Shown in pieces: positions 1,196 to 54,760 of a DNA stretch of 64,000 nucleotides. The notes below the pieces were generated by a model. The model was not told the DNA's origin and did not search any database. It was given only the letters and a program-made list of their open reading frames with translations. The stretch comes from Eledone cirrhosa (taxonomy: Eukaryota): contig OZ024743.1 in NCBI GenBank assembly GCA_964016885.1, positions 109,740,001 to 109,804,000 on the forward strand. Reading direction: 5' to 3'. The stretch's first letter is position 1. The number at the start of each line of letters is the position of its first letter. A program made the translations under genes and the position numbers.

Positions 1196-2632
1196 GTGAC
1201 GTTTGAGGGAGACACCCCGCACATACACATACCCCCACTAGTAAGAGAAATGACACAGAAAAAAAAGCTAATTTACAGAACAGTTGACATCATTACCAAA
1301 AAACCCATAACGCTCCCAACAAGCACTATCGAAGCTGCACTAAAATACGTCAAGCCAGACGTGGCATACATCCAAAGAGGTAAACAGTATAGAAGTGTGT
1401 CAGTGCTCTTTAAGAGCAAAATTCTGGCACAACAACACTCGGTTCACCCAATAAAAACGGATCAACACATCTTCCCCACGTACATGGGAAGATGATCCTA
1501 CAAAATAAAAATAACCAGGATCCCAGCAGAGGTCAACATGTGGTCGATCCTACGCTGCATCCTGAAGAAGGATGAGGACACCCTCTTATCTGTAGACAGG
1601 ACAGATCGCCATAACTGGCTTGGAACCTGCATTGAGGTTCTGGTACAAAGGAGGCCAGAGAGAGTTGAGAAAATACTGGACATGATCGTGCTTGAGGAAG
1701 ATGTCATCTCCATTTTAGTGGAGCGGAAAATACCTCAGTGCCATAAGTGTGGGAAAACCACACACTTAAAAGCCATTTGCCCTCTCTTAAACAAACCGAG
1801 GACAAACAAGGTGTTATTACCAACACCAACACCAAAACCCCAACATCAACACTCCCAACCAAACACAACACAAACACCTGCAACATCCACTCCCACATCA
1901 CCAGAGACCAGAGACAACCACACACACAAAATAACACTAAAAAACCCTCCATTACCCCACCCACCCCTGTCAAATACTTCCAAAAATACCTGCACAAACA
2001 CTCCACCACACAACATACCGCTCCCATCTACCCATGATTCAGAAGTCTCAGACACGGGAGCTTCTATATCTCCAAGTGAGAATGAAGAGGAACCCCAAAA
2101 ATCCAAAAAACAAAAAAAGACACTAGAAAGACACAAAATCATCTGCAGAAAACACGCACACACTCAACCCCACCATAAACACACCGCCACAAACGACAAA
2201 CACACCAACAACACAATCACCACCAACACAACCAAACATTTCACCAACAAAACAAACACCACACCACCACAATCACAAACACCAACCACAAAAAGAAAAC
2301 TACAAACAGAAACAGTACACATAAAAAACAAAACACACTACACATACATAAAAACAAAAAACAAAGAACTGGTGGAAACTGTCCGAAAGGACCTCACACT
2401 ACAAACGGAAGGGAAAACCTTCCCCACCAACGACCCACACCCAAACCTCAAACTTATCAGGGTAACAACCCTACAGTATGAAACTTTAAAAGAGAACTTC
2501 CCACATGATGTGGGCCCCCCTTGCCAAAAGCCCCTTAACCGTGTCCTGCTAAAAGGATTCCCTACCTCCCCCAAAACCACCAATCTGGACAGGGAGATCG
2601 AACAACCCGACCTCCAGGAAACGAAAAGTTAA
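1196..2632 (+). pseudogene. Tx1 ORF1 (gag-like, CCHC zinc knuckle, Thr/Pro-rich linker), disrupted
   Basis: CHKCGKTTHLKAIC knuckle; homologous to 12938-13542 (PMYMGRR; CHLCGARDHVRAAC). Confidence 0.8.
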
Positions 2633-2671
2633 GTGTTCCCCCTTTTCTCTCCTTAACTCTTCTTCACCAAC

Positions 2672-6711: not shown

Positions 6712-6742
<31 letters not shown>

Positions 6743-6963
6743 CAATTAAGTTAAAAATGTACATCCATATATGTATACTGAAATACTAGTATGCATATGA
6801 ATACACACACGTATACATATGTAGATTACCAAGTCTTTCACTGGTTACTTTACAGTGAGTATCCAGCTATTCTGTATGTAAACACACAGACAAACCGGTT
6901 TTTAGAGTCATACTGGTTTTTGAGGAAACACCTTTCCTCTATTCTCCAGAAAGCCAGACAAGG

Positions 6964-7008
6964 AATATTGAACTAGTTTCGTTGTTGTTACAACTCATCA
7001 GCAATATT
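6964..7008 (-). ncRNA. Minimal type I hammerhead ribozyme (unit 1)
   Basis: Minus strand: AATATTG-CTGATGA-GTTGT aaca ACAAC-GAAA-CTAG-TT^CAATATT. Confidence 0.9.
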
Positions 7009-7429
7009 TACCTCTCTACCGGCCTTTCTGGAGAATCGTTAAAGAACATATCGTTATATGCTTTTTCTATGAAAATTAGTAGTGGGCAGACTAATTTGCA
7101 TAGAGTGTGAGTACGTACCGGTTCAACGGAGACGATAAAAACAAATAACGAAACGAAATTAAATTTCGTTTCGTTTGAAACTCACTTTTGTATGACTGAC
7201 GCTTAAACAATTAAGTTAAAAATATACATCCATATATGTATACTGAAATACTAGTATGCATATGAATACACACACGTATACATATGTAGATGTACCAAGT
7301 CTTTCACTGGTTACTTTACTGTGAGTATCCAGCTATTCTGTATGTAAACACACAGACAAACCGGTTTTTAGAGTCATACTGGTTTTTGAGGAAACACCTT
7401 TCCTCTATTCTCCAGAAAGCCAGACAAGG

Positions 7430-7474
7430 AATATTGAACTAGTTTCGTTGTTGTTACAACTCATCAGCAATATT
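7430..7474 (-). ncRNA. Minimal type I hammerhead ribozyme (unit 2)
   Basis: Identical to 6964-7008. Confidence 0.9.
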
Positions 7475-7895
7475 TACCTCTCTACCGGCCTTTCTGGAGA
7501 ATCGTAAAAGCACATATCGTTATATGCTTTTTCTATGAAAATTAGTATTGGGCAGACTAATTTGCATAGAGTGTGAGTACGTACCTGTTCAACGGAGACG
7601 ATAAAAACAAATAACGAAACGAAATTAAATTTCGTTTCGTTTGTAACTCACTTTTGTATGACTGACGCTTAAACAATTAAGTTAAAAATGTACATCCATA
7701 TATGTATACTGAAATACTAGTATGCATATGAATACACACACGTATACATATGTAGATGTACCAAGTCTTTCACTGGTTACTTTACTGTGAGTATCCAGCT
7801 ATTCTGTATGTAAACACACAGACAAACCGGTTTTTAGAGTCATACTGGTTTTTGAGGAAACACCTTTCCTCTATTCTCCAGAAAGCCAGACAAGG

Positions 7896-7940
7896 AATAT
7901 TGAACTAGTTTCGTTGTTGTTACAACTCATCAGCAATATT
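7896..7940 (-). ncRNA. Minimal type I hammerhead ribozyme (unit 3)
   Basis: Identical to 6964-7008. Confidence 0.9.
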
Positions 7941-8586
7941 TACCTCTCTACCGGCCTTTCTGGAGAATCGTAAAGGCACATATCGTTATATGCTTTTTCT
8001 ATGAAAATTAGTAGTGGGCAGACTAATTTGCATAGAGTGTGAGTAGGTACCGGTTCAACGGAGACGATAAAAACAAATAACGAAACGAAATTAAATTTCG
8101 TTTCGTTTGTAACTCACTTTTGTATGACTGACGCTTAAACAATTAAGTTAAAAATATACATCCATATATGTATACTGAAATACTAGTATGCATATGAATA
8201 CACACACGTATACATATGTATATGTACATCTACATATGTATACGTGTGTGTATTCATATGCATACTAGTATTTCAGTATACATATGTGGATGTACATTTT
8301 TAACTTAATTGTTTAAGCGTCAGTCATACAAAAGTGAGTTTCAAACGAAACGAAATGTTTACATACAGAATAGCTGGATACTCACAGTAAAGTAACCAGT
8401 GAAAGACTTGGTACATCTACATATGTATACGTGTGTGTATTCATATGCATACTAGTATTTCAGTATACATATATGGATGTACATTTTTAACTTAATTGTT
8501 TAAGCGTCAGTCATACAAAAGTGAGTTACAAACGAAACGAAATTTAATTTCGTTTCGTTATTTGTTTTTATATATATATATATATA

Positions 8587-10000: not shown

Positions 10001-10031
<31 letters not shown>

Positions 10032-10044
10032 TATATACATATAT

Positions 10045-10365
10045 AAGTTTAAGCAAAGATCGCTGCTTTCACCCTTAACGGGATCTTCTGAAACTAACAA
10101 AGTCAATCTGTGATCGCAGAAGTGAATATTTCACAAAACGTTGCAACCGGAGGAAGACAGGAAGACGATACTTTGATTCGTGGAAACGTTCCCTGGCAAA
10201 GAACGGGAAAAAACGCATATAATACGTCATTATTTAGAGCGGTGAAAAACAATTACACGCAAAGACAGAACCACGTTTTTGCGCTACGGTTCTTATATGT
10301 TTGACATATATTTATCCTTATCGAGCCCTGTTTGGATTTTAGCCTTCAAATGTATTATTATTACT
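10045..10365 (-). mobile_element. Solo PLE pseudo-LTR fragment of the 22166 family, with an oppositely oriented 5'UTR piece
   Basis: 10045-10195 is the reverse complement of about 22256-22406; 10285-10360 matches 22436-22510. Confidence 0.8.
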
Positions 10366-12170
10366 ATATATATATATGGATGTGAACGATATAACCTCTA
10401 TATTTGCGTTCAATTACCTATAAATTTCAGAGTTACCGCGCCGAATTAATATTCAAAGCTGAATTAAGCACGTTGGATAATACTTTCCAACTAACTTTTT
10501 TTTATCAATGCAGGTCGCGTGAATTCCGAATTGCATCCAAGTGAAGAATTTATGGTCTAACAATACATATATATATAAGAAGAAATATCATAGATGAATT
10601 AAACAAACTGCTCATATTTTTGTTTACATAGCTTTCCATTAATACATTATATATTCAAATAAGTTTTTCAATATTCTCAAATATACGTTCAACATAAATA
10701 TCCATATTTAAAAATCTCATTTTTAAACCAACTCAAGAAAGTGAATGCATTAACTTGAAGAATTAATCATCTTCCTTCCTTCCGAAAAACACATTGTGAA
10801 CATGAATAAAGAAACAAGTTATAAATATATTATTTCAATTTTACAAGAGGCAAATTACATAGAATCAGATATAATCCTCCATTAATGTCGATGCATATTA
10901 ATCTCAAATTGAAGCAATTTATATTCTGTTACAATGTCAATGTTCTGCGGAAAAGCAACGGGCATAAACGTTTCTCATTTCTCATCAAGAAACTTAATGA
11001 CAAGCAATTAGAAACTAATATTTCAGTTTTTAATACTTTTTCATTTCAGTAGCGTGACTCGGTATAAATGTAAGACATGTTAAATTCTCTATATAGCAAT
11101 ATATTTCATACAATTTTGAATGACTTATTTCGATAACTTGCGTTACTGATTGACTTACTGAAATATATATTTTTTGTGTGTCCTATAAAAAATTATATAT
11201 CGCCGAAGAGAACGAGAGCAGATGTACAATTGTAATTCGAGGGACACGGTAATGTAAAAATAGTAACATAACAGCGACTCTCCAAATAGTGAAGAAGAAT
11301 TAGACTTGACATTTAGCTAAACAAAACAACAAGAGTATCCACTCAGAATTAATATATTTTATGTAAATACAATATACAAATACAATATGCTAATGTTAAT
11401 TAAATCGTGTACACCCCGAAAGCATACTTTTGTAGACTTATGCTAATTTGAAGCATTATCATATATTTTACATTCACTATAGCTATTACTACAAAAATCC
11501 TTCCGGCGTTTAAATACTTATATATTTTCACATCGGATTCTGTTCTACGGGGAAAGGCTTGCTTACCAAATGTACATTTCATTCACGAAAAGGGGAATAA
11601 AGAAGTATTATCCATATATTCGAGAACCGGTGACATGTTTGCATTTTTGAAATTGTTGATAAATATGGATATAAAAAAAATGTAATAATAATAAAATACA
11701 TAAGCGACAAGGAAATATCTGGCATACGGTGAGGAATGCTATTTCAATTATCCCGATGTTTACTGAAGGTAAGTCCAGTTAGATCATCTAAATAAAGGAT
11801 AGTGCGTCAAAAACTTATAGCTAACGTGTTAATCATTGAATAAAACTGTCAGTTCCAGTTATGGAATAGATTAAGTTATTTTTTTCTGAAAATTGAACGA
11901 AAATACACAGCTCACAATAAATCAAGCAGCACTAAATCTTAACTACCAAATTTTACATTCTCAACCTGGATTTTATACTGAATGTTGACATAAAATCTTA
12001 AATTGTTTGTCCGTATCTGGTTTTAGGCTCCAAGAAACAATAGTTGAAATTCCAATTCCATGTTTCAACTTAATTGTTCCCAATTACTAATGTATATGCG
12101 TACACACCTACACACATGTGTGTACACACCATGTGTACACACCATGTGTACACACCTACACACATGAGTG

Positions 12171-16258
<4,088 letters not shown>

Positions 16259-17233: not shown

Positions 17234-18408
17234 GATGGGTACAAAAGTCGCTCCAACTTATGCCAACTCATTCATGGCATACTTGGAAGTCCAGATATAT
17301 GAACAGTCCAAATCAAAATACGAATTGAACTTCCCCAAATATTTATCAGAGATTTGGAAACGCTACTTTATGATTGTCTCATTCTTTGGTCTCACACACA
17401 CGATTAACTAAATGATATCAAACATTTAATTAACGGCATCAATAACCACACCCAATTCTCAATGGAATATAACGAAAATCAACTCCTCTTTCTGGACATC
17501 TTAATCATAAAAAAGTCACAAATATTGAAAGTGACATACACAACAAACCAACAGATTCCAAACAATACCTGCTATTCACCTCCAACCATCCAAAGCACAC
17601 GAAGATAAACATCACTTTTAATCTAGCAAGAAGAATTTGCACAATTGTCTCCAATTATGAAACGCGAATAATAGACTTCAAGAATTAAAGAAAATTCTAC
17701 TCGAAAGACAGTACCCACCATTACTAATAAATAAGGGAATAGAAAGGGCTAAAGTATTAGGCATTGACGAATTACGAAAACAGAAACAAATTCAAGGTAC
17801 GTCCAATATTCTATCATATGTCTCAACACAACCCAGGAAATGCGGAAGCTTACAACACTATTCACAACATCCCACTATTGAAACAAGACCTAAGAATGAA
17901 AAAAGCCCTTGAAGCACACACAATAATCAAAAGCAAAAGACAACCAAAATCACTGAAAACATTACTCACCAATGCCAAATTACCTACCACAAACAAACAA
18001 CCAACTGTCAAAAAATGTGGTCGCTCCAATTGTGGAATCTGCACTCACCTCATTGAAGGTAACACGTATACATTTGAATCAGGACAAAATTTTGCTGTAA
18101 AAAATCACTTCACTTGCTCATCAAAAAATCTAGTTCATGCCATTAGATGTAAAGGATGCAATGAAGATTATATAGGACAAACTAACCTCACACTCAGAAA
18201 CAGAATGACAGTTCATCGCCAACAATTACGAGATCCGACCACTAGACAGTTACCACTAAGTGCACAACTAGACATATGCGCAAGTAATAAGACACCCAAA
18301 TTCCAAGTCTTCCCATATTATGTTTTCGCTGACAATACATCAGAACAAATACGAATAAATTAGGAAAATATGTTTATTAAAAAATATAGACCAGCATTAA
18401 ATATAGTT
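17234..18408 (+). pseudogene. PLE RT C-terminal half + GIY-YIG endonuclease, frameshifted
   Basis: ORFs 17139-17411 and 17764-18363; homologous to 50595-51894. Confidence 0.88.
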
Positions 18409-21030: not shown

Positions 21031-21307
21031 GAAAAATATGAAAACATGGCGTGCTGCGTGGTTGCAAATAGGTTACATATGGATAAATTTAGTCCTTCAT
21101 CAGTGATCTTCCAGCCTTCTTTGATATTTTATCGCTTTAAAACCATATACCTCTGGTTGATTCAAGCAACGGCTAAAGAATGTCGTTGGGACACATAAAT
21201 ACGGGGAACGAGCGAGACAGTAAACAAACAAAGATGGTAATGCAACGAAAAGTGAGGAAGAGCGTAAAAGCTGTGGTATTCTGCGTAAACATTTAATCTA
21301 TACTTAT

Positions 21308-21630
21308 AATTGTTTCTACTGTTGGCACAAGGCCAGCAATTTCCCAGTTCATTACTGGTACTTTATTTTATCGCCCCCGTAAGGATGAAAGGGAAAGTTA
21401 ACCCCGACGGGATTTGAACTCAGACTGTAAAGGGACGTAACTATGCTGGAAACCATGGCGTCCGACCATCTACATAAGACCACCAATTACACTAGTGCTT
21501 TATTTTATCCAGCCTGTAATGTTGAAAGGTAAAGCTAACCTCGTCGGGATTTGAACTCAGAACATAGAGAGCTATCACTCTATGCTGCAAAGCATGGTGT
21601 CTGACACTCTACTGATACTGCCAAACCACT
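21308..21630 (-). mobile_element. Two tandem tRNA-derived SINE copies
   Basis: Reverse complement of the 45394 SINE (B box GAGTTCAAATCC; GCCTTTCATCCTTACGGGG domain). Confidence 0.8.
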
Positions 21631-21761: not shown

Positions 21762-22121
21762 CGTGTGTGTGTGTGTGTGTGTACAACCCTTATCGCGCCT
21801 TTTTAGATCTTGGTCTTTCTAGTTATTACTACTATATATATATATATAGAGAGAGTTATATATGGCTAAACTTTTAAGCATGGAACTTCTGGTGTCCTTT
21901 AGTTGAACTCACTTAGACAATATTCATTCCATGCAAGTAATTTTCTAGGTCATATCTCTTAATGAAATTGAGTTTGGCAGATTGTATTTGTTTGTTAAAA
22001 AAAATGTGAAATCCTCTCTTCCAAGTTTTGTAATGTTTATGTTTATGTTTTTTTCTCGTTTATTTAATTATTACTATTAAGAACTTTTCATGTGAATGAA
22101 TATATATATGTATTATACGCA

Positions 22122-22166
<45 letters not shown>

Positions 22167-22354
22167 TAACGGTTAGTACGAACTATACGAGGATATTTTA
22201 CGTCTTGAAGTGGTAGCTAAGTATATGTTATGTTTATGCCATTACTTATTTGTATAGGGAACGTTTCCACGAACCAACGTATCGTCTTCCTGTCTTCCTC
22301 CGGTCGCAACGTTTTTTGAAATATTTACTTTTGCGTTCACAAATTGACTTTTTT

Positions 22355-22405
22355 AGTTTCAGAAGATCCCGTTAAGTGTGAAAGCAGCGATTCTATGCTT
22401 AAACT
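22355..22405 (+). ncRNA. Variant type I HHR in pLTR (core CAGAAGA)
   Basis: AGTTT-CAGAAGA-TCCC gttaa G(T/G)GT-GAAA-GCA..TGC-TT^AAACT; copies at 24956-25006 (+) and 10046-10095 (-). Confidence 0.55.
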
Positions 22406-22558
22406 TTAATCTGTTATTTTAATAAATATTTGTTCTACGGTTCTTATATATTTGATATATATTTATCCTTATCGCGCCCTCTTTGTGTTTTAGTCTTCAA
22501 ATTTATTATTATATCTATTTGGCTCCTTCGGTCGAGGACTCTATTGACTTATATCATC

Positions 22559-24778
22559 ATGCAGAAACACAATCTGAATATTTCTACAAAGAACATACCC
22601 GTACCAAGCAAGAAAACCTACCTAAAACTCCTGATACAGAAAACAGACTCGTTCATTAAAAGGTTGCGTTGGCGTGCCATTTATTTCGATAATCAGGGAA
22701 AAGCAGACATCAAACAGGATGAACTTTGGTTTAAAATCAGTAACTACCCTCCGAGTAACCCAGCATTGCTCCCCTTCGAAAATGACTTGGAACTGATACA
22801 GAGTGTCGAATTTCGGAATAGGAGCAATTCCTTCCTGCAGGACCTGGAGAATAGAATTCGGTCTATTAAGGAGTCTAATGCCGTGCACGTCCACTCCGAC
22901 AAAACTGGCAAACTATATGAAGTGGAGCGCAGTACTTACCATCAACTGCTACATAATGCTGTAACAAAGGATTACCGTAAAACTAATCGGAGCTCAAGGG
23001 CGGTGGATTGGCAGTATCGGTAGAGGGTCGGACGCCATGCTTTCCAGCATAGTTACGTCCCTTTACGATCTGAGTTCAAATCCCGCCGAGGTTGACTTTG
23101 CCTTTCATCCTTACGGGGTCGATAAAATAAAGTACCTATAATGCACTGGCTAATTGCTGGCCTTGTGCCTAAAGTAGAAACAATTAATGATATCAACGAT
23201 GCTGGGTTTAAAATCACCTCTGATCTCAACATCCTGGACCGGTCTGAACCTCCGGACCCTATTTCTCCCCACTTTACACTGAAAGATTACAAATCCAATT
23301 TCCCTAACAACCCTCTATTCGGCTTATTAATCCTACGAAGTCCGATTTAGGTAGACTTAGTAAAGGGATTTTAGATAGAATTATACCTGAAATTAGAAAT
23401 TTGGCACCTCTTGCACTGTGGACCAATTCTTCCGCGGTGATCGATTGGTTCAACGGCATATGCAACAAGGAACATTGCTGTTTTATCCAATTCGACAACA
23501 ATAATTACTACTCCTCCATCACTTTACCACTTCTCCTTAGAGCTATCAATTTCGCTAAATCCCTCACAGTGGTTAAAGATTTCGAAGTTGTTGTCATCCT
23601 CAATGCCCGTAAGTCGGTGATTAATTTCGTCGACTATATTTGGATTACAAAATACAATAGTACCCAATTCGACGTGAGTATGGGCGCCAGCGATTCTGCG
23701 GAGGTTACTGATCTTATCGGCCTTTTCCTTCTTTTCTCTATCAAGGAAGAATTCCCCAACGGGGGCGGTGGTTTGTACCGTGATGACGGTCTTTTGACCA
23801 TGACAAAGTGCGGCTCACGTGCTTGCGACAGTTTCAGAAAAGAACTCACAGCCTTCTTTAGAGGCTTCAAACATTCTGAATGATACGCTTAATTACATCA
23901 GTAAGCATTCTAACCATCCTGTCAGCATAACCAAGAACCTGGTAAGAAAGGTTTCTTTGAGGCTTTCCCCTCTATCTACTAACGAGCATATTTTCAACGA
24001 CCATTCCACATATTACAATGAAGCTCTTGCTGGGAGTGGATTTGTCGATAAGGGAGCATACACAGAGTACGAGAATAGGCCTATGAAAAATAGACGCGAC
24101 GCATTATATGGTATAACTAACCATATAATATGGAGGTGGCCATACCATTAGCTAAGACCTTTTTCTCCCTTATTATGAAGCATTTCCCCCCAGCACATAA
24201 ATATAGTAAACATTTTAATAGAAATAACATTAAAATGTCTTACTCTACGACTCTTAACTTTGCACATAACATCACAGCTTCAAATTTAGCTAAACTACCT
24301 ATCCGTAGGAACGCATGCAACCCTGTAGCTAGTACTAACTGTAATTGTAGGAATTGGGTTGACTGCCCTCTATCCGGGAATTGTATGTTTAGTAAAATTG
24401 TCTACAAATGTAAGGTTGAAACATCCACACACCGTAGGACCTACATAGGGTTAACCGCCAATAGATTCAAGCAGCATCTTTACATGCATACGCATTTTTT
24501 CTTAACCCTTTAAACAGGAATATGACGTCACTTTCAGTTTATATCTGGAGTCTAAAGACTACCACACCCAATGTAAGTTACACTTGGAGATCCTAAATAG
24601 GGCTAGATCGTATAACGGAAATAAAAGACCATGTGACCTCTGCGCCGCTGAGACCCTGGAAATACTCTACGCCAAAGACAACATCTTAAACAAAAAATCT
24701 GAGGCAATTTTGTCTTGTAAACATAAATTGCACAAAGCATTCCTGTATTACAGTCCCACATTACACCCTAACGGATAG
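22559..24778 (+). pseudogene. PLE RT-GIY-YIG ORF disrupted by a SINE insertion, frameshifts and an internal deletion near 23870
   Basis: Consecutive ORF fragments 22430-24778; paralog 36208-37452 has the segment missing here. Confidence 0.88.
22999..23185 (+). mobile_element. tRNA-derived SINE nested in the PLE ORF
   Basis: Near-identical to 45394-45580; A box TGGCAGTATCGG, B box GAGTTCAAATCC. Confidence 0.9.
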
Positions 24779-25014
24779 TACGAACTATACGCGGATAGTT
24801 TACGTCTTTAAGTGGTAGCTAAGTATTTGTTATGTTTATACCATTACTTATTTGTATAGGGAACGTTTCCACGAACCAAAGTATCGTCTGCCAGTCTTCC
24901 TTGGTTGCAACGTTTTTTGAAAGAATTACTTCTGCTTTTACAGATTGAATTTTTTAGTTTCAGAAGATCCCGTTAAGGGTGAAGGCAGCGATTCTTTGCT
25001 TAAATTTTAATCTG

Positions 25015-25083
<69 letters not shown>

Positions 25084-25539: not shown

Positions 25540-25910
<371 letters not shown>

Positions 25911-26002
25911 GTATGTATGTAAAAGGTAAACAGAAATAACAACACAATTGGTTCAGTATATGGAAGGTATATATTAGGTTAACGCTTGATATAGCAGAAT
26001 TA

Positions 26003-26043
26003 GTGTGTTAACGTTTCGTACGCTAGTCCTTCATCAGAATAAA
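26003..26043 (-). ncRNA. Minimal HHR-like core
   Basis: Minus: TATT-CTGATGA-aGGAC tagc GTAC-GAAACGTT-AACAC; decayed paralog at about 34897-34931 (+). Confidence 0.5.
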
Positions 26044-26300: not shown

Positions 26301-26417
26301 ATAAGTTGAAATAAAATGAAAACGAAATTTCATTTCTCACTCTTAGTACGGCACTTACTTAAATGTAAGTATGAGTGTATACGTACATACATATATGTAT
26401 ACAGACGTACAGTAGCA

Positions 26418-26463
<46 letters not shown>

Positions 26464-26810
26464 TACATACAGGTACACATACATATATGCACGTATCAGT
26501 TTAGCGGACGCTTATTATAACGCCGCTTTGTTCATTTGTAAACAAACTGAACAGCCTGAATGTTATGCCGTACGGTGTTAAGGCAACCACGTCACCTTTT
26601 TGTTCAACACTGACACAGGAACGATGTACTAGTTTCAAGCTTGTTAGCTATCATCAGCACCGTATACCCATCTGCCAGATAGTTGAACGTTCGAAAGTAT
26701 ATACTTTCCTTATGAAAATTAACGGCTGAGCAGCCTAATTTGCATACCGAGTGAGTTATGTCGGTCAGGCATACCGAGACCGATAAGTTGAAATAAAATG
26801 AAAACGAAAT
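26301..26810 (-). mobile_element. Single 482-bp retrozyme-like monomer with 28-bp terminal redundancy
   Basis: ATAAGTTGAAATAAAATGAAAACGAAAT at 26301 and 26783; contains HHR and octamer; distantly related to the 466-bp repeat. Confidence 0.82.
26621..26663 (-). ncRNA. Minimal type I hammerhead ribozyme
   Basis: Minus: ACGGTG-CTGATGA-tAGCT aaca AGCTt-GAAA-CTAG-TA^CATCGT. Confidence 0.85.
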
Positions 26811-26939: not shown

Positions 26940-27996
26940 GTTTACATATATATATATACATACACATACATATACGTGTTTTGCAACATATATTTTATCT
27001 GGTGATTCTATAGACATGTTTTATGATATATATATATATATATATATTAGAATTAGTATATTGGCTCTAATATAGATGTATACATACGTGCAAATGTATG
27101 TGAAATTCGTATAATATACCATATGTATACGAAAACATATTTGGCAGATTTAGCAATGACTGTTTAATGTTATGACTGAGGTCATCTACCTTCCTCCAAC
27201 AGAAGCAGGGAGAAGCAACCGACAGCGCAGTTTCTGGCCATTTTCCGTTTGCCTGCTGCTGCAACCCACCCTAGCCCCCCTTGCCACTCAAATAAGATAA
27301 ACATATATAGCTTTTCTGTTCATATATATGTGCTGATTAGCCGCATTTGCATATGGAAATTTAGGATTGCTCAGCTTGATTAAGAATTAGAATTACGTTT
27401 TCACTCCAATTGAAACTTCACACGCACGCACACACTGACAAGTACACACACACACACACGCGCATATGCACCCCCCACACACACATATATATGTATATAT
27501 ATATATACGTATGTATATATGTGTGTTTATTTGTGTAGATTTTACGAACCACTTACATCAATACCTACCATTCCCTATTCCACAATGCTTTATGCAACTT
27601 GTAACGCTATTCAGTAAGTGGGTTATTTACTGCAGGATATGTTGTATTACCGATACCTTGAATATTTCAATTAGTACAACAGTTTGTTATTCGAACTATT
27701 GAAGATACGGAATTTCAGGAAATTACAGTGTATTATACTGTGTTTATATTTCTCTCATCATATTAAAACACAATATGAGTGGGAACATTTGAAATTTAGA
27801 GTAAATGATGTTTGAAAAGCAAGAAAGCAAGATTTAAAGATTTATTCGATGAAGTGTCAACCGTAATGTTTATTCGCGTTTAAAGTACGTTAATATCGCC
27901 AGTGGGAAGTTGAAGGGTAAACATTAAACCTTGTCTTATTCTTCGTTCAGCACAAATACAACATTGCAGACATGGTTTTATTATGAGCAATATGCA

Positions 27997-33070: not shown

Positions 33071-33460
33071 AATTGAATTGGCGGTGAATTGGTAGTATCG
33101 GTAGAGGGTTGGACGCCATGCTTTGGCGCATAGAGTTACGGCCCTTGCCATTCTGAGTTCAAATCCCGCCGAGGTTAACTTTGCCTTTCATCCTTATGGG
33201 GTCGATAAAATAAAGTACCAGTAATGTACTGGATAATTGCTGGCCTTGTGCCAAAAGTAGAAACAATTATTAATTGAATTGGCAGTATCGGTAGAGGGTT
33301 GGACGCCATGCTTTCTAGCATAGTTACGTCCCTTTACAGTCTGAGTTCAAATACCGCCGAGGTTAACTTTGCCTTTCATCCTTACGGGGTCGATAAAATA
33401 AAGTACCAGTAATGTACTGGGTATTTGCTGGCCTTGTGCCTAAAGTAGAAACAATTATTA
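33071..33460 (+). mobile_element. Head-to-tail dimer of tRNA-derived SINE
   Basis: Two copies of the 45394 SINE (33080-33270 and 33280-33460). Confidence 0.9.
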
Positions 33461-33720: not shown

Positions 33721-33830
<110 letters not shown>

Positions 33831-33900
33831 CATGTATGTATATATATACACAATACTATACGTCTGTATACATATATGTATGTAGGTATACATACTTACA

Positions 33901-33936
<36 letters not shown>

Positions 33937-33937
<1 letters not shown>

Positions 33938-34515
33938 TTCGTATCTCCAAAAAAATATGGTTTTAGGAAGCCGTAGCTATGCAAATATCGGGGGGGGGGG
34001 GGGGGCTAACGTCCTATGGCGACGTCTAGCAGAAACAAGGGGTACAACCGTCTATGCATTTCAGGCTTAACTGGCCATCGTCAGGACGGAACCTCCAACC
34101 GCTTGCGACAGCTGGACTAGAAGACAGGCGACAATATATAGTTTTCTCGTCTGTGTAAAAAGGTGATTAATCTCATTTTCATATGAAGCTGCATAAGTTG
34201 GCTCAACTTATAATAACAAATAAATACGATTACGCTTCAAACATAGCTTTATAAAATGTGTATACATATTTCGTATCTCCAAAGAAACACGGTTTTATGG
34301 TAGTTCGTACTATCCGTTAGGGTATAATGTTGGGCTGTAATACAGGAAAGGTTCGTGCAATTTATGTTTAGAAGCCAAAATTGCCTTAGATTTTCTGCTT
34401 AACATGTGGTCTTTGGCGTAGAGTATTTCCAGGGCCTCAGCGGTGCAGATGTCACATGGTCTCTTATTTCCGTTATAAGAGATAGTCTCAGCTCGGATCT
34501 CCCAGTATAACCTAT
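33937..34515 (-). mobile_element. 3' fragment of Naiad-like PLE followed by a ~332-bp HHR-bearing terminal unit
   Basis: 34300-34510 is homologous to 24585-24790 (CDIC..E; HPNG*); direct repeat TTTCGTATCTCCAAA at about 33937 and 34269. Confidence 0.85.
34048..34089 (-). ncRNA. Minimal type I hammerhead ribozyme
   Basis: Minus: CCGTC-CTGACGA-tGGC cagttaa GCCt-GAAA-TGCA-TA^GACGG. Confidence 0.85.
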
Positions 34516-35083
34516 GGATCTCTTATGGTCAGAAACATATACTCTTACAGCTGATACAGACTAATAAAATACACTCCCTTATATTAACATATTTTTGCTC
34601 TTAGATTCGTACCTGCAAGCATACACCCACTCTTATACTTACATATATACACACGATTCCTTAGCTTCGTACGGACGTATAACACGCCAGATCTATACGG
34701 ATGCGCACACGTATAGCTCTATAAACGAAGCGTTTGTTTTTTCATCTTGGGTAGATGCGCTTCATCACCTACTTTTCTAAAAAAGGATATGATACAGGAA
34801 ATGCCTGCATCAACAGTTTTCCACGAGATGGCAACTTGAATAGACCTATTATTTTGCTCTAAAAACCTTTTTTCCGATTCTGCCCTCAATCTTTCTTTTT
34901 ATGAAGGACTAGCGGCCGAAGCGTTAATACCCTTTTCCTGCTATTTCAAGCGTCAAAATAATATATTCCTTCTATATACTGTACCGATTATGTTGTTACT
35001 TCTCTTTACCTTTTCCACACACACATACATCCACTCGCCCACATACACACAAATATATATATATTTATATACATACATACATA

Positions 35084-35146
<63 letters not shown>

Positions 35147-35149
35147 AAA

Positions 35150-35514
35150 ATAATGAAATGAGATTTCATTTCTCACTCTTAGTACGGCTCATACTTAAAT
35201 GTAAGGATGTATACGTACATACATATACGTATACATACGTACAGTAGCATGTATATATATACATGCATGCACATATATATATATATATATATATGTACGT
35301 ACGTGTTTACCGAACATTTATTATAATATTTGGGTTGTTTGTAGACAAACAGCCCGAATTAAGTCGTACAGTGTTCGGCAACCATCGTCGCCCTTTTGAG
35401 CGACGATGGTTGCCCGTTTGGGCAACGATTGTTGCCGAACACTGTACGGCTTAATTCGGGCTGTTTGTTTACAAACAAAATGAACATTATAATAAATGTT
35501 TGGTAAACCCATAC

Positions 35515-35579
<65 letters not shown>

Positions 35580-35645
35580 CATGTATGTATCTATATACAC
35601 AGTACTGTACGCCTGTATACATATATGTATGTACGTATACATACT

Positions 35646-35650
<5 letters not shown>
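35150..35650. repeat. Fold-back of two partial units of the 26301 family
   Basis: About 35296-35392 is inverted against 35424-35520, with nested short palindromes at the centre. Confidence 0.8.
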
Positions 35651-35713
<63 letters not shown>

Positions 35714-35826
35714 AAAATCGACCGTTGTTCTTGGAGGCCATCAGGATATCCTGATGGCCCCCCCAAACAACGCTCAATTTTTTAAAGGGGTACGTCAATG
35801 TCTATTTATAAAACTGTTATATATTG

Positions 35827-35891
35827 TAGTTTGTCTGATGAAGGCATACTATAATGTAACTTGGTATCCTTGAAATATATATAATGAAATA
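35827..35891 (+). ncRNA. Type I HHR (GAAATAT family), weak stem I
   Basis: CTGATGA-AGGcATAC..GTATCCTT-GAAA-TATATA-TA; flanks homologous to 25350-25460 in reverse. Confidence 0.6.
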
Positions 35892-35958
35892 AATATGGTT
35901 TTATGAATATAGTTTCCATTTATTAATATCGTATATATATATATATATATATATATAC

Positions 35959-37650
35959 ATTTCGTATCTCCAAAGAAAACGGTTTTAGGAAGCCGTAGCT
36001 ATGCAAACACCGGGGGTTAACGCCTCCTGTTTTCACCAGCAGAAGCAAGGGGGACAACCGTCTCTGCATTTTAGGCATAACTGGCCATCGTAAGGAGAGT
36101 CCCTCCCACCGCTTGCTAGACTAGAAGATAGGCGAGAATATACAGTTTTCTCGTCTGTATAAATGAGGTGATTAATCTCATTTGCATATGAAGCTGCATC
36201 AGTTGGCTCAACTTATAATAAAAAAGAAATAGCATTTCGTTTCAAGCATACCTGTATACAATTTGTATAAATATTTCGTATCTCCAAAGAAATACGGTTT
36301 TAGGATAGTTGGGTATAATGTGGGGCTGTAATCCAGGAAAGTTTTGTGCAATTTATGTTTACAAGCCGAAATTGCCTCAGAATTTTTGTTTAATATGTGG
36401 TCTTTGGCGTAGCGTATTTCCACGGCTTCAGCAGCGCAGAGGATCTCCCAGTGTAACTTATGTTGGGTGTGGTAGTCTTTTAGACTCCAGATATAAGCTG
36501 AAAGTGACGTTATATACCTTCTTAAAGGTTTAAGAAAAGAATGGGTATGTATGTAAAGACGTTGCTTGAATCTATTGGCGGTTAGCCCTATGTAGGCCCT
36601 ACCGGACATCGGTGTTTCAACCTTACATTTGTAGACAATGTTACTAGAGAGGCATTTCCCGGATAGGGGGCAGTCAACGCGGTTCCTACAATTACAGTTA
36701 GTACTAGCTACAGGGCTGCACGTGTTCCTACGGCTAGGTAATTTAGCTAAATTTGAAGCTGTGATGTTATGTGAAACGTTAGGAGTCGTAGAGTAAGACA
36801 TTTTAATGGTATTTCTATTAAAAGTTTTACTATATTTATGTGCTGGGGGGAAATGCTTCATAATAAGGGAGAGAAAGAACTTAGCTAATGGTTTGGTCAC
36901 CTCCATATTATATGGTGGGTTATACCATATAATGCGTCGGTATCTATTTTTCCTTGGTATATTCTCGTACTCTGTATAAGCTACCTTATCGACAAATCCA
37001 CTCCGAGCAAGTGTTTCATTGTAATATGTGGAATGGTCGTTGAAAATATGCTCGTTTGTAGATAGACGAGAAAGCCTCAAAGAAACGTTTCTTACCAGGT
37101 TCTTGGTTATGCTGGAAGGATGGTTAGGATGCTTACTTATGTAATTAAGCGTGTCATTCGGCTTTCTATAGGGGTAGTGAATACCATTCGAAACATTGAG
37201 GGTAACGTCTAGGTAATTAACGACCGAGAGGTTGGCCTCAACCTTTATGGAGAGGTTGTAGCCTTTAAAGAATGCTGGGAGTTCTTTTATGAAGCTGTCA
37301 CAAGCACATGGGCCGCACTTTGCCATGGTCAAAAGACCGTCATCACGGTACGAACCACCGCCCACGTTTGGGAATCCTTCCTTGATAGAGAAAAGAAGGA
37401 AAAGGCAGATAGGATCAGTAACCTCCGCAGAAACGCTGGCGACCATACTCACGTCTAATGGGGGTACTATTAGATTTTTTTATCCAAATAGATTCGTCGA
37501 AATTAATTACCGACTTACGGGCATTGAGGATGACATCATCTTCAAAATCCTTAACCTCTGTGAGTCTTTTAGCGAAATTGATAGCTCTAAGAATAAGTTA
37601 AGGGTGAAAGCAGCGATTATTTGCTTAAACTTTAATCTGTTATTTTAATA

Positions 37651-37654
<4 letters not shown>
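35959..37654 (-). mobile_element. 5'-truncated Naiad-like PLE with 3' terminal unit and an inverted pLTR fragment at its 5' end
   Basis: ORF 36208-37452 (YRDDGL, YLDVTL, CNCR..CPLSGKC, YIGLT); terminal unit 35959-36305 matches 33937-34300; 37597-37654 matches 22371-22428. Confidence 0.92.
36208..37452 (-). pseudogene. PLE RT (C-terminal half) + GIY-YIG, 5'-truncated, small deletion near the end
   Basis: 414-aa ORF paralogous to 23401-24778. Confidence 0.9.
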
Positions 37655-37741
<87 letters not shown>

Positions 37742-40394: not shown

Positions 40395-40835
40395 TAATTA
40401 AATATACTGCTGCCACAAGGCCAGCAATTACCCCAATGCTTTACTGGTGCTTTATTTGATCGACCCCGAAATGATGAAAGGAAAAGCTACCCCCGGCGGG
40501 ATTTGAACTCAGAATGTAAAGCCCCATAAATCTATGCTTCAAATCACGGTGTCTGACACTCTACTTATACTGCCAATACACCGCGCTGGGTTGTTTTACA
40601 ATAATGATTTCTTATATAGGCACTAGGCCAGTAATTTTGGTGGAGGGGAAAGTCGATTATACGACCCCAGTGCGTGACTGGTACTTTATTTTATCGACCT
40701 CGTAAGGATATAAAGCAAAGTCAATCTCGAGGGGATTTGAACTCAGAACGTAAATAGCTATAAATCCATGCTTCAAAGCATGGTGTTTGATGCTCTGCCG
40801 ATACTGCCAATACACTGCCCTGGATTGTTCTATAA
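40395..40835 (-). mobile_element. Two tandem tRNA-derived SINE copies
   Basis: GGGATTTGAACTCAG (reverse B box) at about 40498 and 40733, with the TTTATCGACC domain. Confidence 0.8.
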
Positions 40836-43811: not shown

Positions 43812-45393
43812 GGTAAGCATATGTATATATTGAATTGAATTAGTAAACTTGCCATTCTTGGGGCACATATGCTCTATCACTAATTCAATTTCATTTCAAA
43901 TTCTACCGCGACTTCAAACCTTGTGATGCTACGCGCACGCACGCAAGCACGCACACACAAACACACACAAATTAATATATATCTATATATATATTTCTCC
44001 TACTGCTTCTCCTCGTGATGCTGCATGCTTGACCGCTGCAAGACACATAAGTATTATGTACGCAGAGCTTTAGTTTGTTCTTTAGCCTTATATATATATG
44101 TCAATAAAGCCATCACCGCTGAAGTGACTTTTTTTAATATGACACTTCATGTATTTTTGTAATATGCAAGTGATTTTCAGTCAACGTAAAGTGCATTAAA
44201 GGAATTTTAACATCAGGTAGTTTTATAGGTTGAACTCGAAGTAAATTATGTTGGATTTAAGAAAATACAAACGGATATATTTCGCTTTCGTGTTTGACAC
44301 TCGATCCATATGATAATCAGTGAACGTTTAACTCCTTGCAAAATCATGATACATCCTTCTATTTGAAAAATAAAAAAAAGTTTTAAAATATTAGACAGCA
44401 ATAACTACTTCGTAATAGATATTCTTCTTCTCTCTTTTTTAGAGAGTACTAAGATACATTTTGATTCGAAAGTATCTTACAGCTGAATAAACATACGATA
44501 TTTAATATTTAATTTTAGATTTCTTTCGGTGCTTTGAATACATCCATTATATCGCAATCAAAGTTTACTGGATTAAAAAAAAATATAAATTCCTTTATAA
44601 ATAATAAATAAAATAATCATTAAAAATAATTTCGAATCATTTTAAATTACGTATGAAAACTAGAAGAATTTTAAAAAATTGAAATGTTGTGGGTACAGAA
44701 TAATTTATAGTTGGATATCGTGTTATCTTAGAATACTTTAAAACAGAATTTAATAAATATTTAAACAACTCGCTTGACAGTTACACAATAAATTTAACTG
44801 GAGATTTAATCAGCTAAATGTGTTGCACATTGCATTCAAATAAATTCACTTAGACTATTAACAATTCATTAATATAATTTAAAAATATATTTCTATTTAT
44901 TTTTATCTAAATTTAATTTTATTTCAATTGAGTTTCCAAATCGCTGCTAAATTTTAAATTTAAAAAAAAAATGTTACAGGAAATAGCGTATTTTGGATTT
45001 CAGATATTTATCGCAAAGTAATTATGCTTATTGACTTAGTGCTATAGTAAATAGTAACTACACTACATCAACTAAATTGAAACTGGAACATTCAAATGAA
45101 CATAGTCATCATGCATATGTATCTGTTCTGTTACAATTACTACGGATAACTGTATCTGAAGGAATACACATATGCGTACATACTCATTCATACATACATA
45201 TAAACATACACACATACATATATATAGACATACATGCAAACATAATACATACATACATGAATACATAGAGTACATACATTCATACATATATGTATATATA
45301 TATATATAGAGAGAGAGATACATAGATACATACATTCACAACATACATGCATGCATATATAAATCCATTATGTGTTTTAAATAGGTGTTTTAA

Positions 45394-45580
45394 AGGGCGG
45401 TGGATTGGCAGTATCGGTAGAGGGTCGGACGCCATGCTTTCCAGCATAGTTATGTCCCTTTACTATCTGAGTTCAAATCCCGCCGAGGTTGACTTTGCCT
45501 TTCATCCTTACGGGGTCGATCAAATAAAGTACCAGTAATGCACTGGGTAATTTGCTGGCCTTGTGCCTAAAGTAGAAACA
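45394..45580 (+). mobile_element. tRNA-derived SINE with 17-bp TSD
   Basis: TSD ATTATGTGTTTTAAATA at 45367-45383 and 45581-45597; A and B boxes. Confidence 0.92.
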
Positions 45581-45727
45581 ATTATGTGTTTTAAATACAA
45601 CCAGTAATGTGTATGCAAATAATCACGCACATACACGCATTCCTCCAAGTGGGTGTGCATGCATGTTAGTATCAATACATGTAAGTATATATGTGTTATC
45701 AGGCACTCTCTCTATCATCCCACACAC

Positions 45728-49590: not shown

Positions 49591-52040
<2,450 letters not shown>

Positions 52041-52710
52041 GTGGGTACAGGTGTGTATGTGTAGATATAGATATGTATGGATATGTGTAAATATGATTAT
52101 GTGCACATGTGTAAATGTGTATTTAGTTTTGCATCCATTTGTGCGTATGTATATTTATGGTTGGATATCAATATAATTGTACCTCTCTCTATATATAGTG
52201 TGGATATATGCACTTTGTAATCTATGAAATGTATATGTTTTAACTATGCCAACATGTATTTATCTTAGTTTGATTATTTATACATAAACATACTTGATAG
52301 TATTTTAGAGCGTATCATATGCTGTATTATACACCGTACTATATTGTGTTGGTTATGTTGTATAATATCGCATTACTGCATTTAATTATCTTATTATAAT
52401 TTGCATCTTTTAATATACTATCTTTCCTAGGCATAACCTTAATCTATATTCAGCTTAAAACTCAATACAACACGAATCACCATTTACTTTTACATTCCTT
52501 TTAAACTTCACTATACCAGATACATTCAACTATCAGTTTTTGACAATCCCTTTCCTCCTAATTGATTGTTATGCCAATTCTACTATTAACACCATTCAAC
52601 TATTCCTTTCAAAGGTCATGACCTCCACTAATGTGTATTACTTTTCATCTTAACACCATATGAAAAAAACAATTTGATTGGTTAGTTCTTCAACTACCTC
52701 CAAATAAGGA

Positions 52711-54760
52711 CATGAGAAAATATGTCTATACGTAAATGTGGCAGATAGATGTTATCTTCTGTTAGAACTGGTCTTTGTGTGTGTATGTGTTTGTGAGAGA
52801 GAATAAGTGGAGGTGTAAGCGTGTGTGTGTGTGTGTTGTGTGCGTGCGTGTGTGCGTGTCTGTGTGTGGGTGTGTGTAAATATGGGGCTAGAAGCTATAT
52901 GAAGCTATAAATTGGGTGTTGAGGTCTATTATTGATTGGTGGTTGTGTTATGTCTATAATTAGTGTTTCCTTAATTCTAAGATTGCCGAGATTTCTTTCC
53001 TTAGTTTCTATCCTAACTGTTATGGCTTTGTCGGTGTTTTTTCATTTAACTAGGTGTTTCTTAAATGAGCAAGCGATAGTATTGAGGTGTACTTTTATTC
53101 TTATGTGGAGTGGTCTGGTGGTGCTACCTACGTAGAAGTTGCTGCATTTGTCACACTCTGGTCTGTATACGAGGTAAGCCTGGTGACATACGTCTGTGTT
53201 GTTGATTTGGCAGTTGGCTAACCTGCAGCAGTTGTCATGTCTGGTGGAGTGTCTTTTGGTTAGCTGTCCACGTAGAGAAGGGCCTGAGTGGGCCAGTTGG
53301 ATATCTAGTCCCTCTCGTCTGATAGCCCTGCATATGGCTGTTGTTGTTTCGTCACTGAAGTGTCGGAGCTTCAGGAAGCAAGTGTTAGTGCCTCGGGTGT
53401 GGTGTCCTCCGTTCTTTCTGGCACGGTTTGTGGTGGATGTCGTGTATCCGTTCAGTTTGAGTACTTCCAGGAAATGTGTGGTGTATGTGTCTCGGTCTCT
53501 AGCGTCAATGCATTTGTTCCGGATACGTGTTATTCGTTCCTTCTGTATCCGAACTTAGCGCCGGCTGGGAGGGCCGATCTGAAATGTACGAACAGGTCCC
53601 TGCTGGCGGCTTTTTTATAGAAGCAGGTGTGGATGTTGCCTTCCTCTGTTACCCTGAGTTGGAAGTCCAGTAGGGATAGGGATCCGCGGTCATCGAGGTG
53701 TTCAAGCTGAACTTTATACTGGCATCCATGCTTGAGAATATATTTTATCTGCCTCCTCACGGGATGATGTAAGGATGAGTATGTCTTCTACATATTGGGT
53801 GAAGAAGGTATGGGAATGACAGGTGTTGAAGGCCCGGCATTCTAGCTGGTTCATATAGGTGATGGCCAGTAGGCCCGATAGGTTGAATCCCATGGGTAAT
53901 CCTGTTGTCTGTCTGTATGTGTGGTGGTGGAAGGTGAAGTACGTGTTGTCTACTGTGAAGGACAAAAGCTGGTGTATGTCCGTCGGATGGAGGCCGTAGC
54001 AGTGGATCTCCTCTGCGACCACGCAGTCCGTCAATAAATCGACAGCTGGATGAGCGGGCACTGTAGTGTAGAGGGAGACAACGTCGAGGCTAAAGGCGTA
54101 TCTATTTAGTTTAAGTTGTTCTGGCTGGAGTTGGTGTAGTCTACGTATAACTTCGTCGGAGCTACTGACATGCCAGGGAAAGGTGGAGAGTAGAGGCTTG
54201 AGGACCTGGGAGAGGAGCCAAGAAATTTTGTATAGGGGTCCTTGATAGAGCTTTTAGCCCCGTATTTACACCCCGCCCCCACACACACACGCACACAAAC
54301 ACCCCCCCCACACACACGCTTACACCTCCACTTATTTTCTCTCATACACACACATACACACACAAAGACCAGTTCTAACATGAGATAACATCTATCCCCC
54401 ACATTTACGTATAGACATATCTTCTCACACTCACACCCACACACTCACATACCTACACCTTCATGCATTCTCCCACACACTTAAACAGGCATGTACAAAA
54501 CAAACCCTTTTAAAGTGAGACTACTCTTTATCCACCTAACCTTAACACTTTGACATTAGAGATAGAACAGATACTCTATACCATTTCCTGTCAGCATGAC
54601 TTTTCAAGCTATTTAGAACACTGGTTTAACCGCTTCTACTTCCTTCCGAAGAAGAGATATTATCTCGAAAATAAGGACATTTAAATAAATCTAAGGTAAA
54701 AGACTAATTGTCAACAATATCTTTTGCATTTGGATTCTTTATTGTATGTCCATATCTGCA
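52711..54760 (-). mobile_element. 5'-truncated PLE of a third family, with an inverted copy of its 3' region
   Basis: SLDVVSLYT, YRQTTGLPMG, YVED, LDF, FYVGSTTRPLHIRI; 52713-52925 is inverted against 54235-54426. Confidence 0.88.
54641..54677 (+). ncRNA. Degenerate minimal HHR in the inverted PLE 3' region
   Basis: TCCTT-CCGAAGA-aGAGAT att ATCTC-GAAA-AT-AAGGA; U4C and stem III shortened. Confidence 0.45.

Follow-up and report, generated by a model that had tools for sequence, protein, structure and literature searches.

The closest described relatives of the sequences considered here are Penelope-like elements (PLEs) and small hammerhead-bearing repeats. PLEs of the Hydra clade, which includes Hydra-1_Obim of Octopus bimaculoides, are characterized in the accessible text of PMC8557442 by a GIY-YIG nuclease C-terminal to the reverse transcriptase (RT), by RWK and DKT motifs, by CxCX5C and by CxxC with CxH, by the absence of CCHH, by a length of <3 kb and by (TA)n targets, and they carry a 3'-end hammerhead with a CUGANGAU...UGAA core. 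The Naiad clade (Craig et al. 2021, PMC8557442) is described there as having the nuclease first, with DKA, CCHH, a length of 3.4-4.4 kb and no canonical hammerhead. Metazoan retrozymes without long terminal repeats (non-LTR retrozymes) are tandem units lacking an open reading frame (ORF), with a 150-450-bp monomer and a type I hammerhead with palindromic helix III, as far as the accessible text of Cervera and de la Pena 2020 (PMC7229834) describes them. In a stretch of 64,000 nucleotides (nt) from Eledone cirrhosa (contig OZ024743.1, positions 109,740,001 to 109,804,000; the whole stretch is called the window below) we find three copies, A, B and C, of one ORF family that we assign to the Hydra clade. 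Copy A ends in its pseudo-LTR (pLTR), module Y; copies B and C pass, at the end of the ORF, into a unit called X that looks like a free-standing non-LTR retrozyme.

The ORF shares with the Hydra clade of PMC8557442 the protein marks, the length of <3 kb, the (TA)n target, a putative hammerhead near the 3' end with a CUGANGAU...UGAA core and an inverted 5'-truncated piece; with the Naiad clade it has the (TA)n target, pLTRs and inverted pieces in common. It belongs to a different family from Hydra-1_Obim, although the N-terminal protein and the hammerhead were seen to differ by eye only. The core of Y, CAGAAGA, is not among the Hydra cores listed in the accessible text of PMC8557442, nor does that text mention for the Hydra clade a retrozyme in place of a pLTR. 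Within the literature covered (titles and the starts of abstracts, with most subscription journals and Repbase lying outside it) we found no retrozyme replacing a pLTR and no octamer box common to invertebrate retrozymes. Hydra PLEs, their hammerheads, retrozymes and a proposed link between them are already in print, to judge from the accessible part of Li et al. (bioRxiv 10.64898/2026.07.22.740005). The elements are of known kinds, and the chimera of ORF and X is unusual and probably local.

The ORF family and module Y

The family is seen three times in a blastn self-comparison of the window, the copies being 85-89% alike. The copies and the Y modules are as follows.

22166-25020, plus strand: copy A as a whole, from the blastn self-comparison
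22166..22429, plus strand: 5' pLTR of copy A, a 20-nt leader across the ORF stop and then Y, with a CAGAAGA-core hammerhead motif at 22355-22405
22559..24778, plus strand: ORF of copy A, RT and C-terminal GIY-YIG, broken by frameshifts, stops and a short interspersed nuclear element (SINE) at about 23003-23185
23003-23185, no strand assigned: the SINE within the ORF of copy A, from the self-comparison
24788..25020, plus strand: 3' Y of copy A, hammerhead motif at 24956-25006 (GAAG for GAAA), ending in (TA)n
34301..34514, minus strand: copy C, the final 214 nt of the ORF including the stop codon and a 9-nt leader
36306..37598, minus strand: copy B, a 5'-truncated ORF with a 423-codon open frame and a deletion of about 45 nt in the nuclease region
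37597..37654, plus strand: inverted 3' piece of Y (58 nt) at the 5' truncation of copy B, joined at a GTTAA loop and ending in (TA)n
10019..10194, minus strand: solo piece of Y type, its CAGAAGA-core motif at 10046-10095 being fully paired, head to head with a piece of the 5' untranslated region (UTR) at 10278-10367

In copies A and B the YRDDG motif lies before VYKC...YIGLT, so that the nuclease is C-terminal to the RT, as judged by motif and by homologues. Copy A has LRWR and SDKT, corresponding to the RWK motif and to DKT replacing DKG, and the linker CNCRNRVDC of copy B is a CxCX5C, with CDLC and CKH of copy A representing CxxC and CxH, which lie around the conserved E and N; these last three match the homologues, and the five motifs follow one another in the order given, after or around the RT. 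CCHH is absent from the ORF alignment as judged by eye. The pLTR-to-pLTR spacing of copy A, which ends in (TA)n, is 2602 nt including the 183-nt SINE and lies within the Hydra limit of <3 kb. The ORF fits every Hydra-clade mark tested, and these motifs place it in that clade. An earlier reading made from the letters of the window alone (the sequence-only reading) had called the ORF Naiad-like. We reject a Naiad identity, as the ORF shows none of N-terminal GIY-YIG, DKA, CCHH and a length of 3.4-4.4 kb: the nuclease is C-terminal, DKT stands instead of DKA, there is no CCHH, and the length is about 2.4-2.5 kb. Pfam gave chance matches only for three pieces of the ORF, with no RT or GIY-YIG match, and protein searches with the ORF returned 186 and 3 relatives, the closest of them 53% identical over 57% of the query and the others at most 42% identical. 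Further copies of the SINE in copy A are at 33080-33457 (two in tandem), 21307-21629, 40414-40824 and 45393-45584.

The stop codon of copy A is at 24776-24778, and the sequence common to the copies ends 9 nt further on, at 24787. After this base copy A continues into Y, which confirms what had been read for 22166-25020 and places the switch, and copy C enters the X unit X1 at the identical base. Copy B also enters its X unit, X2, at this base and keeps the last 5 nt of the common leader, but 14 nt including the stop codon are deleted, and as a result its frame runs 34 codons into X. The claim that the copies ending at about 34300 and 36305 both enter X from the same point therefore holds for C; for B the junction is not intact. 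The physical linkage of a hammerhead unit to a PLE enzyme gene, which had been pointed out from the letters, is borne out, with X joined just behind the ORF stop codon. The start of the 5' truncation of copy A and that of the 14-nt deletion in copy B lie within one base of each other. The 22-nt ORF-end leader, searched exactly in metagenome contigs, had 0 matches.

The 5' and 3' Y of copy A are identical at 211/232 positions, and the segment 37597-37654 is 95% like 22371-22428, in agreement with the inverted piece of Y reported at the 5' truncation of the 36-37 kb copy. Inverted copies truncated at the 5' end are a normal outcome of PLE insertion in the accessible text of PMC8557442, and PLE termini can move unrelated sequence in trans, according to the accessible text of PMC3846280. 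Neither the inverted Y piece nor the presence of unrelated sequence thus needs a master element with both modules, which had been offered as one explanation and which we set aside. The CAGAAGA core is found in all three full copies of Y and in the read consensus ends described below, and in 0/34 other Hydra 3' ends; Y matches our type I descriptor only if CAGAAGA is allowed, and then in 1/3 full copies. In the region 10019-10367 a different 83-nt segment lies upstream of the final 175 nt, so that Y has variant 5' parts. At 21786-21830 a short stretch resembles the 5' UTR of copy A and runs into (TA)n at the point where the piece ending at 10367 does, some 100 nt beyond the usual Y end, and these two ends would mark a second 3' end site.

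Module X and other hammerhead repeats without an ORF

The X units, their relatives and the octamer boxes discussed below are the following.

33936..34300, minus strand: X1, a unit of 332 bp with its terminal repeat at 33936-33964 and 34268-34296; the 3' end lies in (TA)n, and the octamer at 34175-34182 has one mismatch
34048..34089, minus strand: hammerhead motif of type I in X1, with a CUGACGAU core, stems I and II of 5 and 3 bp and a palindromic stem III
35959..36305, minus strand: X2, a 315-bp unit plus terminal repeat (35959-35986 and 36273-36301), exact octamer at 36180-36187
27130..27420, minus strand: u27, a diverged solo relative of X with no ORF beside it, scores of 104 and 109 against shuffle maxima of 48 and 54, exact octamer at 27345
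26301-26809, minus strand: Z unit, 482-bp period, 27-28-nt terminal repeat, (TA)n on both sides, Hydra-type hammerhead at 26657, octamer 88 nt upstream
6742-8227, minus strand: 466-bp tandem, 3.2 copies, 98% alike, fully paired type I motifs with cores at 7001, 7467 and 7933, octamer 100 nt upstream
7094, 7560, 8026, 26738, 27345, 34175 and 36180, no strand assigned: octamer box sites, each an octamer, about 27 nt and a TATA-like word

X1 and X2 are identical at 296/345 positions; their terminal repeats are about 30-36 nt and both units end in (TA)n. The periods of 332 and 315 bp, the descriptor match at 34048-34089 and three core changes at 36058-36099 bear out, in turn, the sequence-only reading of X as a terminally redundant unit of about 315-332 bp, of an intact hammerhead in one copy and of core mutations in the other. 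The X1 motif reads CCGUC-CUGACGAU-GGC-loop-GCC-UGAA-AUGCAU-A-GACGG, with cleavage predicted after 34053, and the decayed X2 motif has CUGA changed to CUUA, GAAA to AAAA and U16.1 to G. Hammerhead motifs were defined here by our own type I sequence descriptor, and self-cleavage is predicted from the motif. The descriptor has 6 matches in the window (X1, one Y copy at 10090, Z at 26657 and three in the 466-bp tandem) and 0 in each of 10 shuffles. Rfam gave no hammerhead at E up to 5 in 21.5-38.5 kb, among the best 150 of 154 matches, nearly all of them microsatellite-driven, and with the limit raised to E 10 it gave none for X1 or for the 3' Y. When folded alone, the X1 motif forms stems I and II and not III, which is as expected for ribozymes that work as dimers (accessible text of PMC4209133).

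X and Y align no better than shuffles do in 12/12 comparisons (p 0.155-0.905), and homology between them is rejected by this test. That they are unrelated, as had been claimed, is thus upheld for the sequences as a whole; it does not extend to their hammerheads, which share a Hydra-type CU/AGANGAU...UGAA core and a GUUAA loop. A U-U at the base of stem II is present in X1, as it is in 14/34 hammerheads behind metagenome Hydra ORFs, and this is the usual Hydra form, in most rows of file S2 as far as accessible (PMC8557442); an axolotl retrozyme in the accessible text of PMC7229834 has it too. Behind the ORF, a hammerhead is found in 34/42 of the metagenome Hydra loci with at least 250 nt downstream.

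Several features make X look like a free-standing retrozyme. It is a non-coding unit of 315-332 bp and 41-42% GC with a type I hammerhead, within the retrozyme ranges of 150-450 bp and <50% GC, and like the metazoan retrozymes in the accessible text of PMC7229834 it has a palindromic helix III, recurs in tandem and lacks an ORF of its own. It differs from them in being fused to a PLE ORF, in its terminal redundancy of ~30-36 nt set in (TA)n, and in being known from sequence only. Within the window only 1.1-mers of X occur. We nevertheless read X as a retrozyme because of X-X joints in public reads, because of the solo relative u27 and because an octamer followed by a TATA-like box is common to the ORF-less hammerhead repeats; the first two of these are also what a search for solo or tandem X, proposed with the sequence-only reading, has yielded. 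Unit u27 has this same box, with a decayed hammerhead core. Z has the anatomy of X, namely a single unit, a short terminal repeat and flanking (TA)n, and is distantly related to the 466-bp unit, whose tandem is a young retrozyme-like array.

In X1 (with one mismatch), X2, Z and the 466-bp tandem the octamer precedes the hammerhead core by 88-100 nt, with the TATA-like box between. The window has 16 exact octamers where 4 are expected, the chance of one being 0.02 per 330 nt. No exact octamer is present in Y, nor in any of the 3' regions with a hammerhead of the metagenome Hydra set (0/34), and X1 and X2 have no blastn match in the 77 Hydra loci of that set. Occurrence of the octamer and TATA-like box in the ORF-less hammerhead families and its absence from Hydra pLTRs suggest that X, Z and the 466-bp repeats are self-transcribed units, for which the Hydra enzyme is a candidate helper.

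Origin of the ORF-X junctions

Public reads provide a view of the ends of this ORF beyond the window. Four of seven read runs mapped to 35958-37655 at 80% likeness; the raw reads are from restriction-site-associated DNA sequencing (RAD-seq), which samples few sites, and joints and loose ends are given from among those listed. The usual end of this ORF is Y: loose ends at 36311 lead from the ORF end into Y in 20 and 17 contigs of the runs labelled X1 and X2 and in 355 reads of run X5, with an agreement of 0.91-0.93. Joints from X to X that go back 315 nt are present in contigs of runs X1 and X2, and in the raw RAD reads such joints are found in 5 reads with 2 starts and in 18 reads with 3 starts, the shorter side being 34-41 nt, of which the upper value is longer than the terminal repeat. 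In 26 contigs of run X2 a loose end at 36305 leads into X-internal sequence. No bridge from ORF to X, whether a joint or an insert with the 14 nt, is among the rows listed, though single-contig rows of depth 7 are. Read depths in run X1 (about 2 million in the Y bin, 0.1-0.3 million at the ORF 3' end and 0.01-0.13 million in X) are not copy numbers and were not used as such.

The reads also contain another joint of ORF to inverted Y, at 36840 (70 reads, 1 start). The TTAA in loop II of the Y hammerhead (37597-37598) is a recurrent point of strand change, in 4 and 2 contigs and in 69 reads with 5 starts. We dropped the opposite-strand joint at 37597/37598 as a recurrence of the junction of copy B: B is the reference, and fold-backs of Y on Y at the same TTAA are more likely.

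Among the best 40 of 366 differences between copy B and the read majority are 33 ORF sites, at which 9/33 differences are synonymous where 22-27% are expected under neutrality, and we see no signal of purifying selection in copy B over these sites. Copy A carries the letter of the read majority at 28/30 alignable sites where B differs. Together with the neutral pattern this indicates that B descends from the main body of the ORF family rather than from a lineage under selection of its own.

The surroundings of copies B and C bear on whether the two junctions arose once or twice.

33828..33900, plus strand: Z-repeat fragment left of X1, sister of that left of X2
35150..35655, no strand assigned: inverted pair of Z-repeat arms (35150-35392 minus, 35420-35655 plus)
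35710..35935, no strand assigned: insertion of 225 bp that separates Z from X2, contains a 70-bp palindrome and has no counterpart beside X1
34515..35027, plus strand: W, end of another repeat, whose hammerhead-like core is decayed; it faces the 5' truncation of copy C head to head and is 82% like 26043-25908

The two ORF-X junctions are 2 kb apart and in the same orientation. Both X units end in (TA)n adjoining a Z fragment, the 225-bp insert on the B side looking later, and the right Z arm beside X2 and the Z fragment beside X1 end at the same base, each preceded by an expanded (TG)n. These two fragments are identical at 67/72 positions, compared with 57-63 matches to three other Z copies, and they have 6 letters in common against the inverted partner arm of the B-side copy, with 2 and 2 for the other pairings. 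Copies B and C are probably not independent and would have one origin, since they have the same Z-fragment flank. W, seen also at 25908-26043, has a hammerhead-like core of a different type, CUGAUGAAGG...CGAAACG, and we infer that it is a PLE end. At 35835-35875, inside the 225-bp insert, there is a CUGAUGA...GAAA with stem II paired and no stem I.

We therefore regard X as likely to be an independent retrozyme moved by Hydra-clade Penelope enzymes, and propose tentatively, at a little below an even chance, that it inserted once behind the stop codon of an ordinary copy, replacing Y, and that the block was then copied 2 kb away. Copy B would have begun as a standard insertion with an inverted Y piece, a 5'-truncated ORF, Y and (TA)n. 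X complementary DNA (cDNA) would have been primed in the (TA)n behind Y, the copying having gone 1.1 times round an X RNA that was circular or tandem, which would account for the terminal repeat of X. The junction of this cDNA with the ORF end would have formed at the TA|TA step, 9 nt beyond the stop codon, Y being lost at insertion or soon after. The block of Z fragment, (TA)n, X and ORF end would soon have been copied by DNA duplication or 3' transduction to give C. Neutral decay has followed, as observed for the ORF of B and presumed for the rest.

Several observations weigh against this proposal. In the ORF, B and C agree at 115/132 sites, which is no more than the agreement of each with A (117/132 and 116/132), nor is there an excess of sites shared by B and C (6, compared with 8 and 7), so that a local copy must be very early. 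The divergence of Z (5/72) is lower than that of X and ORF together (66/477; Fisher p 0.13), the common Z end may be the regular tail-less end of the Z family, and the Z evidence comprises 72 nt of low-complexity sequence. Copy C faces a partner that B lacks, W, head to head, which is what an independent retro-insertion would show. Neither a target-site duplication nor a Y remnant behind X was found in the self-comparison of the window, and insertion with deletion is for that reason indistinguishable from a template jump. As for the reads, the best run shares only 0.21 of words and the alleles of B itself are nearly absent, so that the runs may be from another species or miss the locus; 39 joints, 8 inserts, 4 indels and 1350 loose ends lie beyond those listed. 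One contig of organism B leads from the ORF end into non-Y sequence, in which 8 nt match the part of X immediately ahead of its terminal repeat, a match that is a lead only. This contig differs from copy B at 9/132 sites, which is also how many sites only B has in the comparison of the three copies (7 + 2) and suggests, by a match of counts and not of positions, that B and C share no derived ORF sites.

A plausible though less probable explanation is a template jump within one integration, in which the RT copies 1.1 rounds of X RNA and jumps to the ORF RNA at a hairpin at the stop codon, the other end being primed on a Y end and C again being a local copy. A small hairpin is indeed predicted over the junction (-3.7 to -5.5 kcal/mol), albeit a weak one, and the break points of A (5' truncation) and B (14-nt deletion), which coincide within a base, point to a pause site; PLE RT can also start inside its RNA at stem-loops with no target homology (accessible text of PMC11167929), and there is no Y remnant behind X. 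Entry would, however, be expected at the normal start sites at the Y end, with Y being kept, and the 5' end of X lies about one tail length beyond a full round, as it does in free-standing Z. Taken together, these two single-origin explanations, insertion and template jump, are fairly probable.

It is rather unlikely that B and C are instead copies of a minority subfamily, whose Y-ORF-X master took the retrozyme as its 3' module and transposed, the inverted Y coming from the 5' Y of the same RNA. This would explain the identical junction base in B and C, the star-like divergence of A, B and C, the retro-like 5' truncation of C with its own inverted partner, and perhaps the weak 8-nt hint in organism B, and the Y core CAGAAGA, absent from 34 other Hydra 3' ends, can be set beside the canonical core of X1. 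The shared Z flank, the 2-kb spacing, the same orientation, the neutral pattern in B and the lack of an ORF-X bridge among the read rows listed, single-contig joints of depth 7 included, argue otherwise, and the flank, the bridge result and the neutrality of B likewise lead us away from the earlier idea of X as a second standing 3' module of the family. The Hydra elements of the metagenome set, as far as compared, also offer no example of module swapping. The metagenome set of 77 loci has 62 with a locatable stop and 46 with enough sequence on both sides, from which a shared-word filter gave 8 close ORF pairs; 7/8 of these kept related 3' ends and in none was a hammerhead module swapped. The pair L050/L053, which parts 34 nt after the stop, was rejected as a swap, as L050 has no hammerhead and looks like flank or an assembly loop. 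ORF-X junctions were assessed within the window, where two are seen, and in the read runs.

The Hydra-type hammerhead core in X, and the homology of retrozymes to pLTRs reported for Xenopus in the accessible part of 10.64898/2026.07.22.740005, could mean that X is the pLTR of a sister autonomous Hydra family recombined onto this ORF. We consider this improbable, as X is followed by X and not by UTR or ORF, carries an octamer box found in 0/34 Hydra 3' regions, and in neither of its copies has a blastn match among the 77 Hydra loci. An assembly artefact joining repeats is the least credible explanation and a very improbable one. The region is dense in (TA)n and repeats and no read spanning the X1 and X2 loci was seen in the mapped runs, yet the two junctions have the same position together with a sequence difference of 13-14% and private indels, and a collapse or mis-join would not give both.

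Retrozymes and their candidate helpers

Other repeats in the window include fragments of other PLE-like RT and GIY-YIG ORFs of a different type at 17761-18363, 50595-52154 and 53042-54253, fragments like long interspersed nuclear elements at 1496-5138 and 13899-15521 (both kinds by motif only), and near-identical repeat copies starting at (TA)n at 16828 and 20198, 3.4 kb apart.

In the model of Li et al., as far as its accessible part states it, animal retrozymes are detached PLE pLTRs. Like that model, the present locus links retrozymes to PLE enzymes, with a clade-typical PLE hammerhead in X. It departs from the model in that X is not homologous to the pLTR of the adjoining ORF, Y, nor matched in the 77 Hydra loci, and in that X has an octamer box. 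The lack of homology to Y and the presence of a box that Hydra pLTRs lack indicate that the direction here was from retrozyme onto PLE. A tandem repeat with an internal promoter of the small nuclear RNA type is known in newt satellite 2 (Coats et al. 1994, as cited in PMC2220036). Compared with that satellite, the boxes of X, Z and the 466-bp repeats are putative promoters identified by their letters, and they occur in a different phylum. The newt promoter reportedly includes an octamer.

Arguments about what mobilises animal retrozymes still draw on co-occurrence and on homology to pLTRs. If ORF-X copies formed a true subfamily at many loci, this would give direct physical evidence for a PLE enzyme acting on retrozyme RNA and for a flow of ends from the parasite to the helper; one local chimera says much less about retrozyme mobilisation. 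It is rather unlikely that a transposing Hydra-clade master swapped a CAGAAGA-drifted 3' module for a captured retrozyme with a canonical hammerhead and a putative octamer-type promoter, possibly in two species. Such a capture would bring a module of an RNA circle that is not autonomous into the autonomous element that helps it, opposite to the published direction from pLTR to retrozyme. The by-product of this analysis may be worth more, namely that three ORF-less hammerhead families in one 64-kb window share an octamer box that Hydra pLTRs lack.

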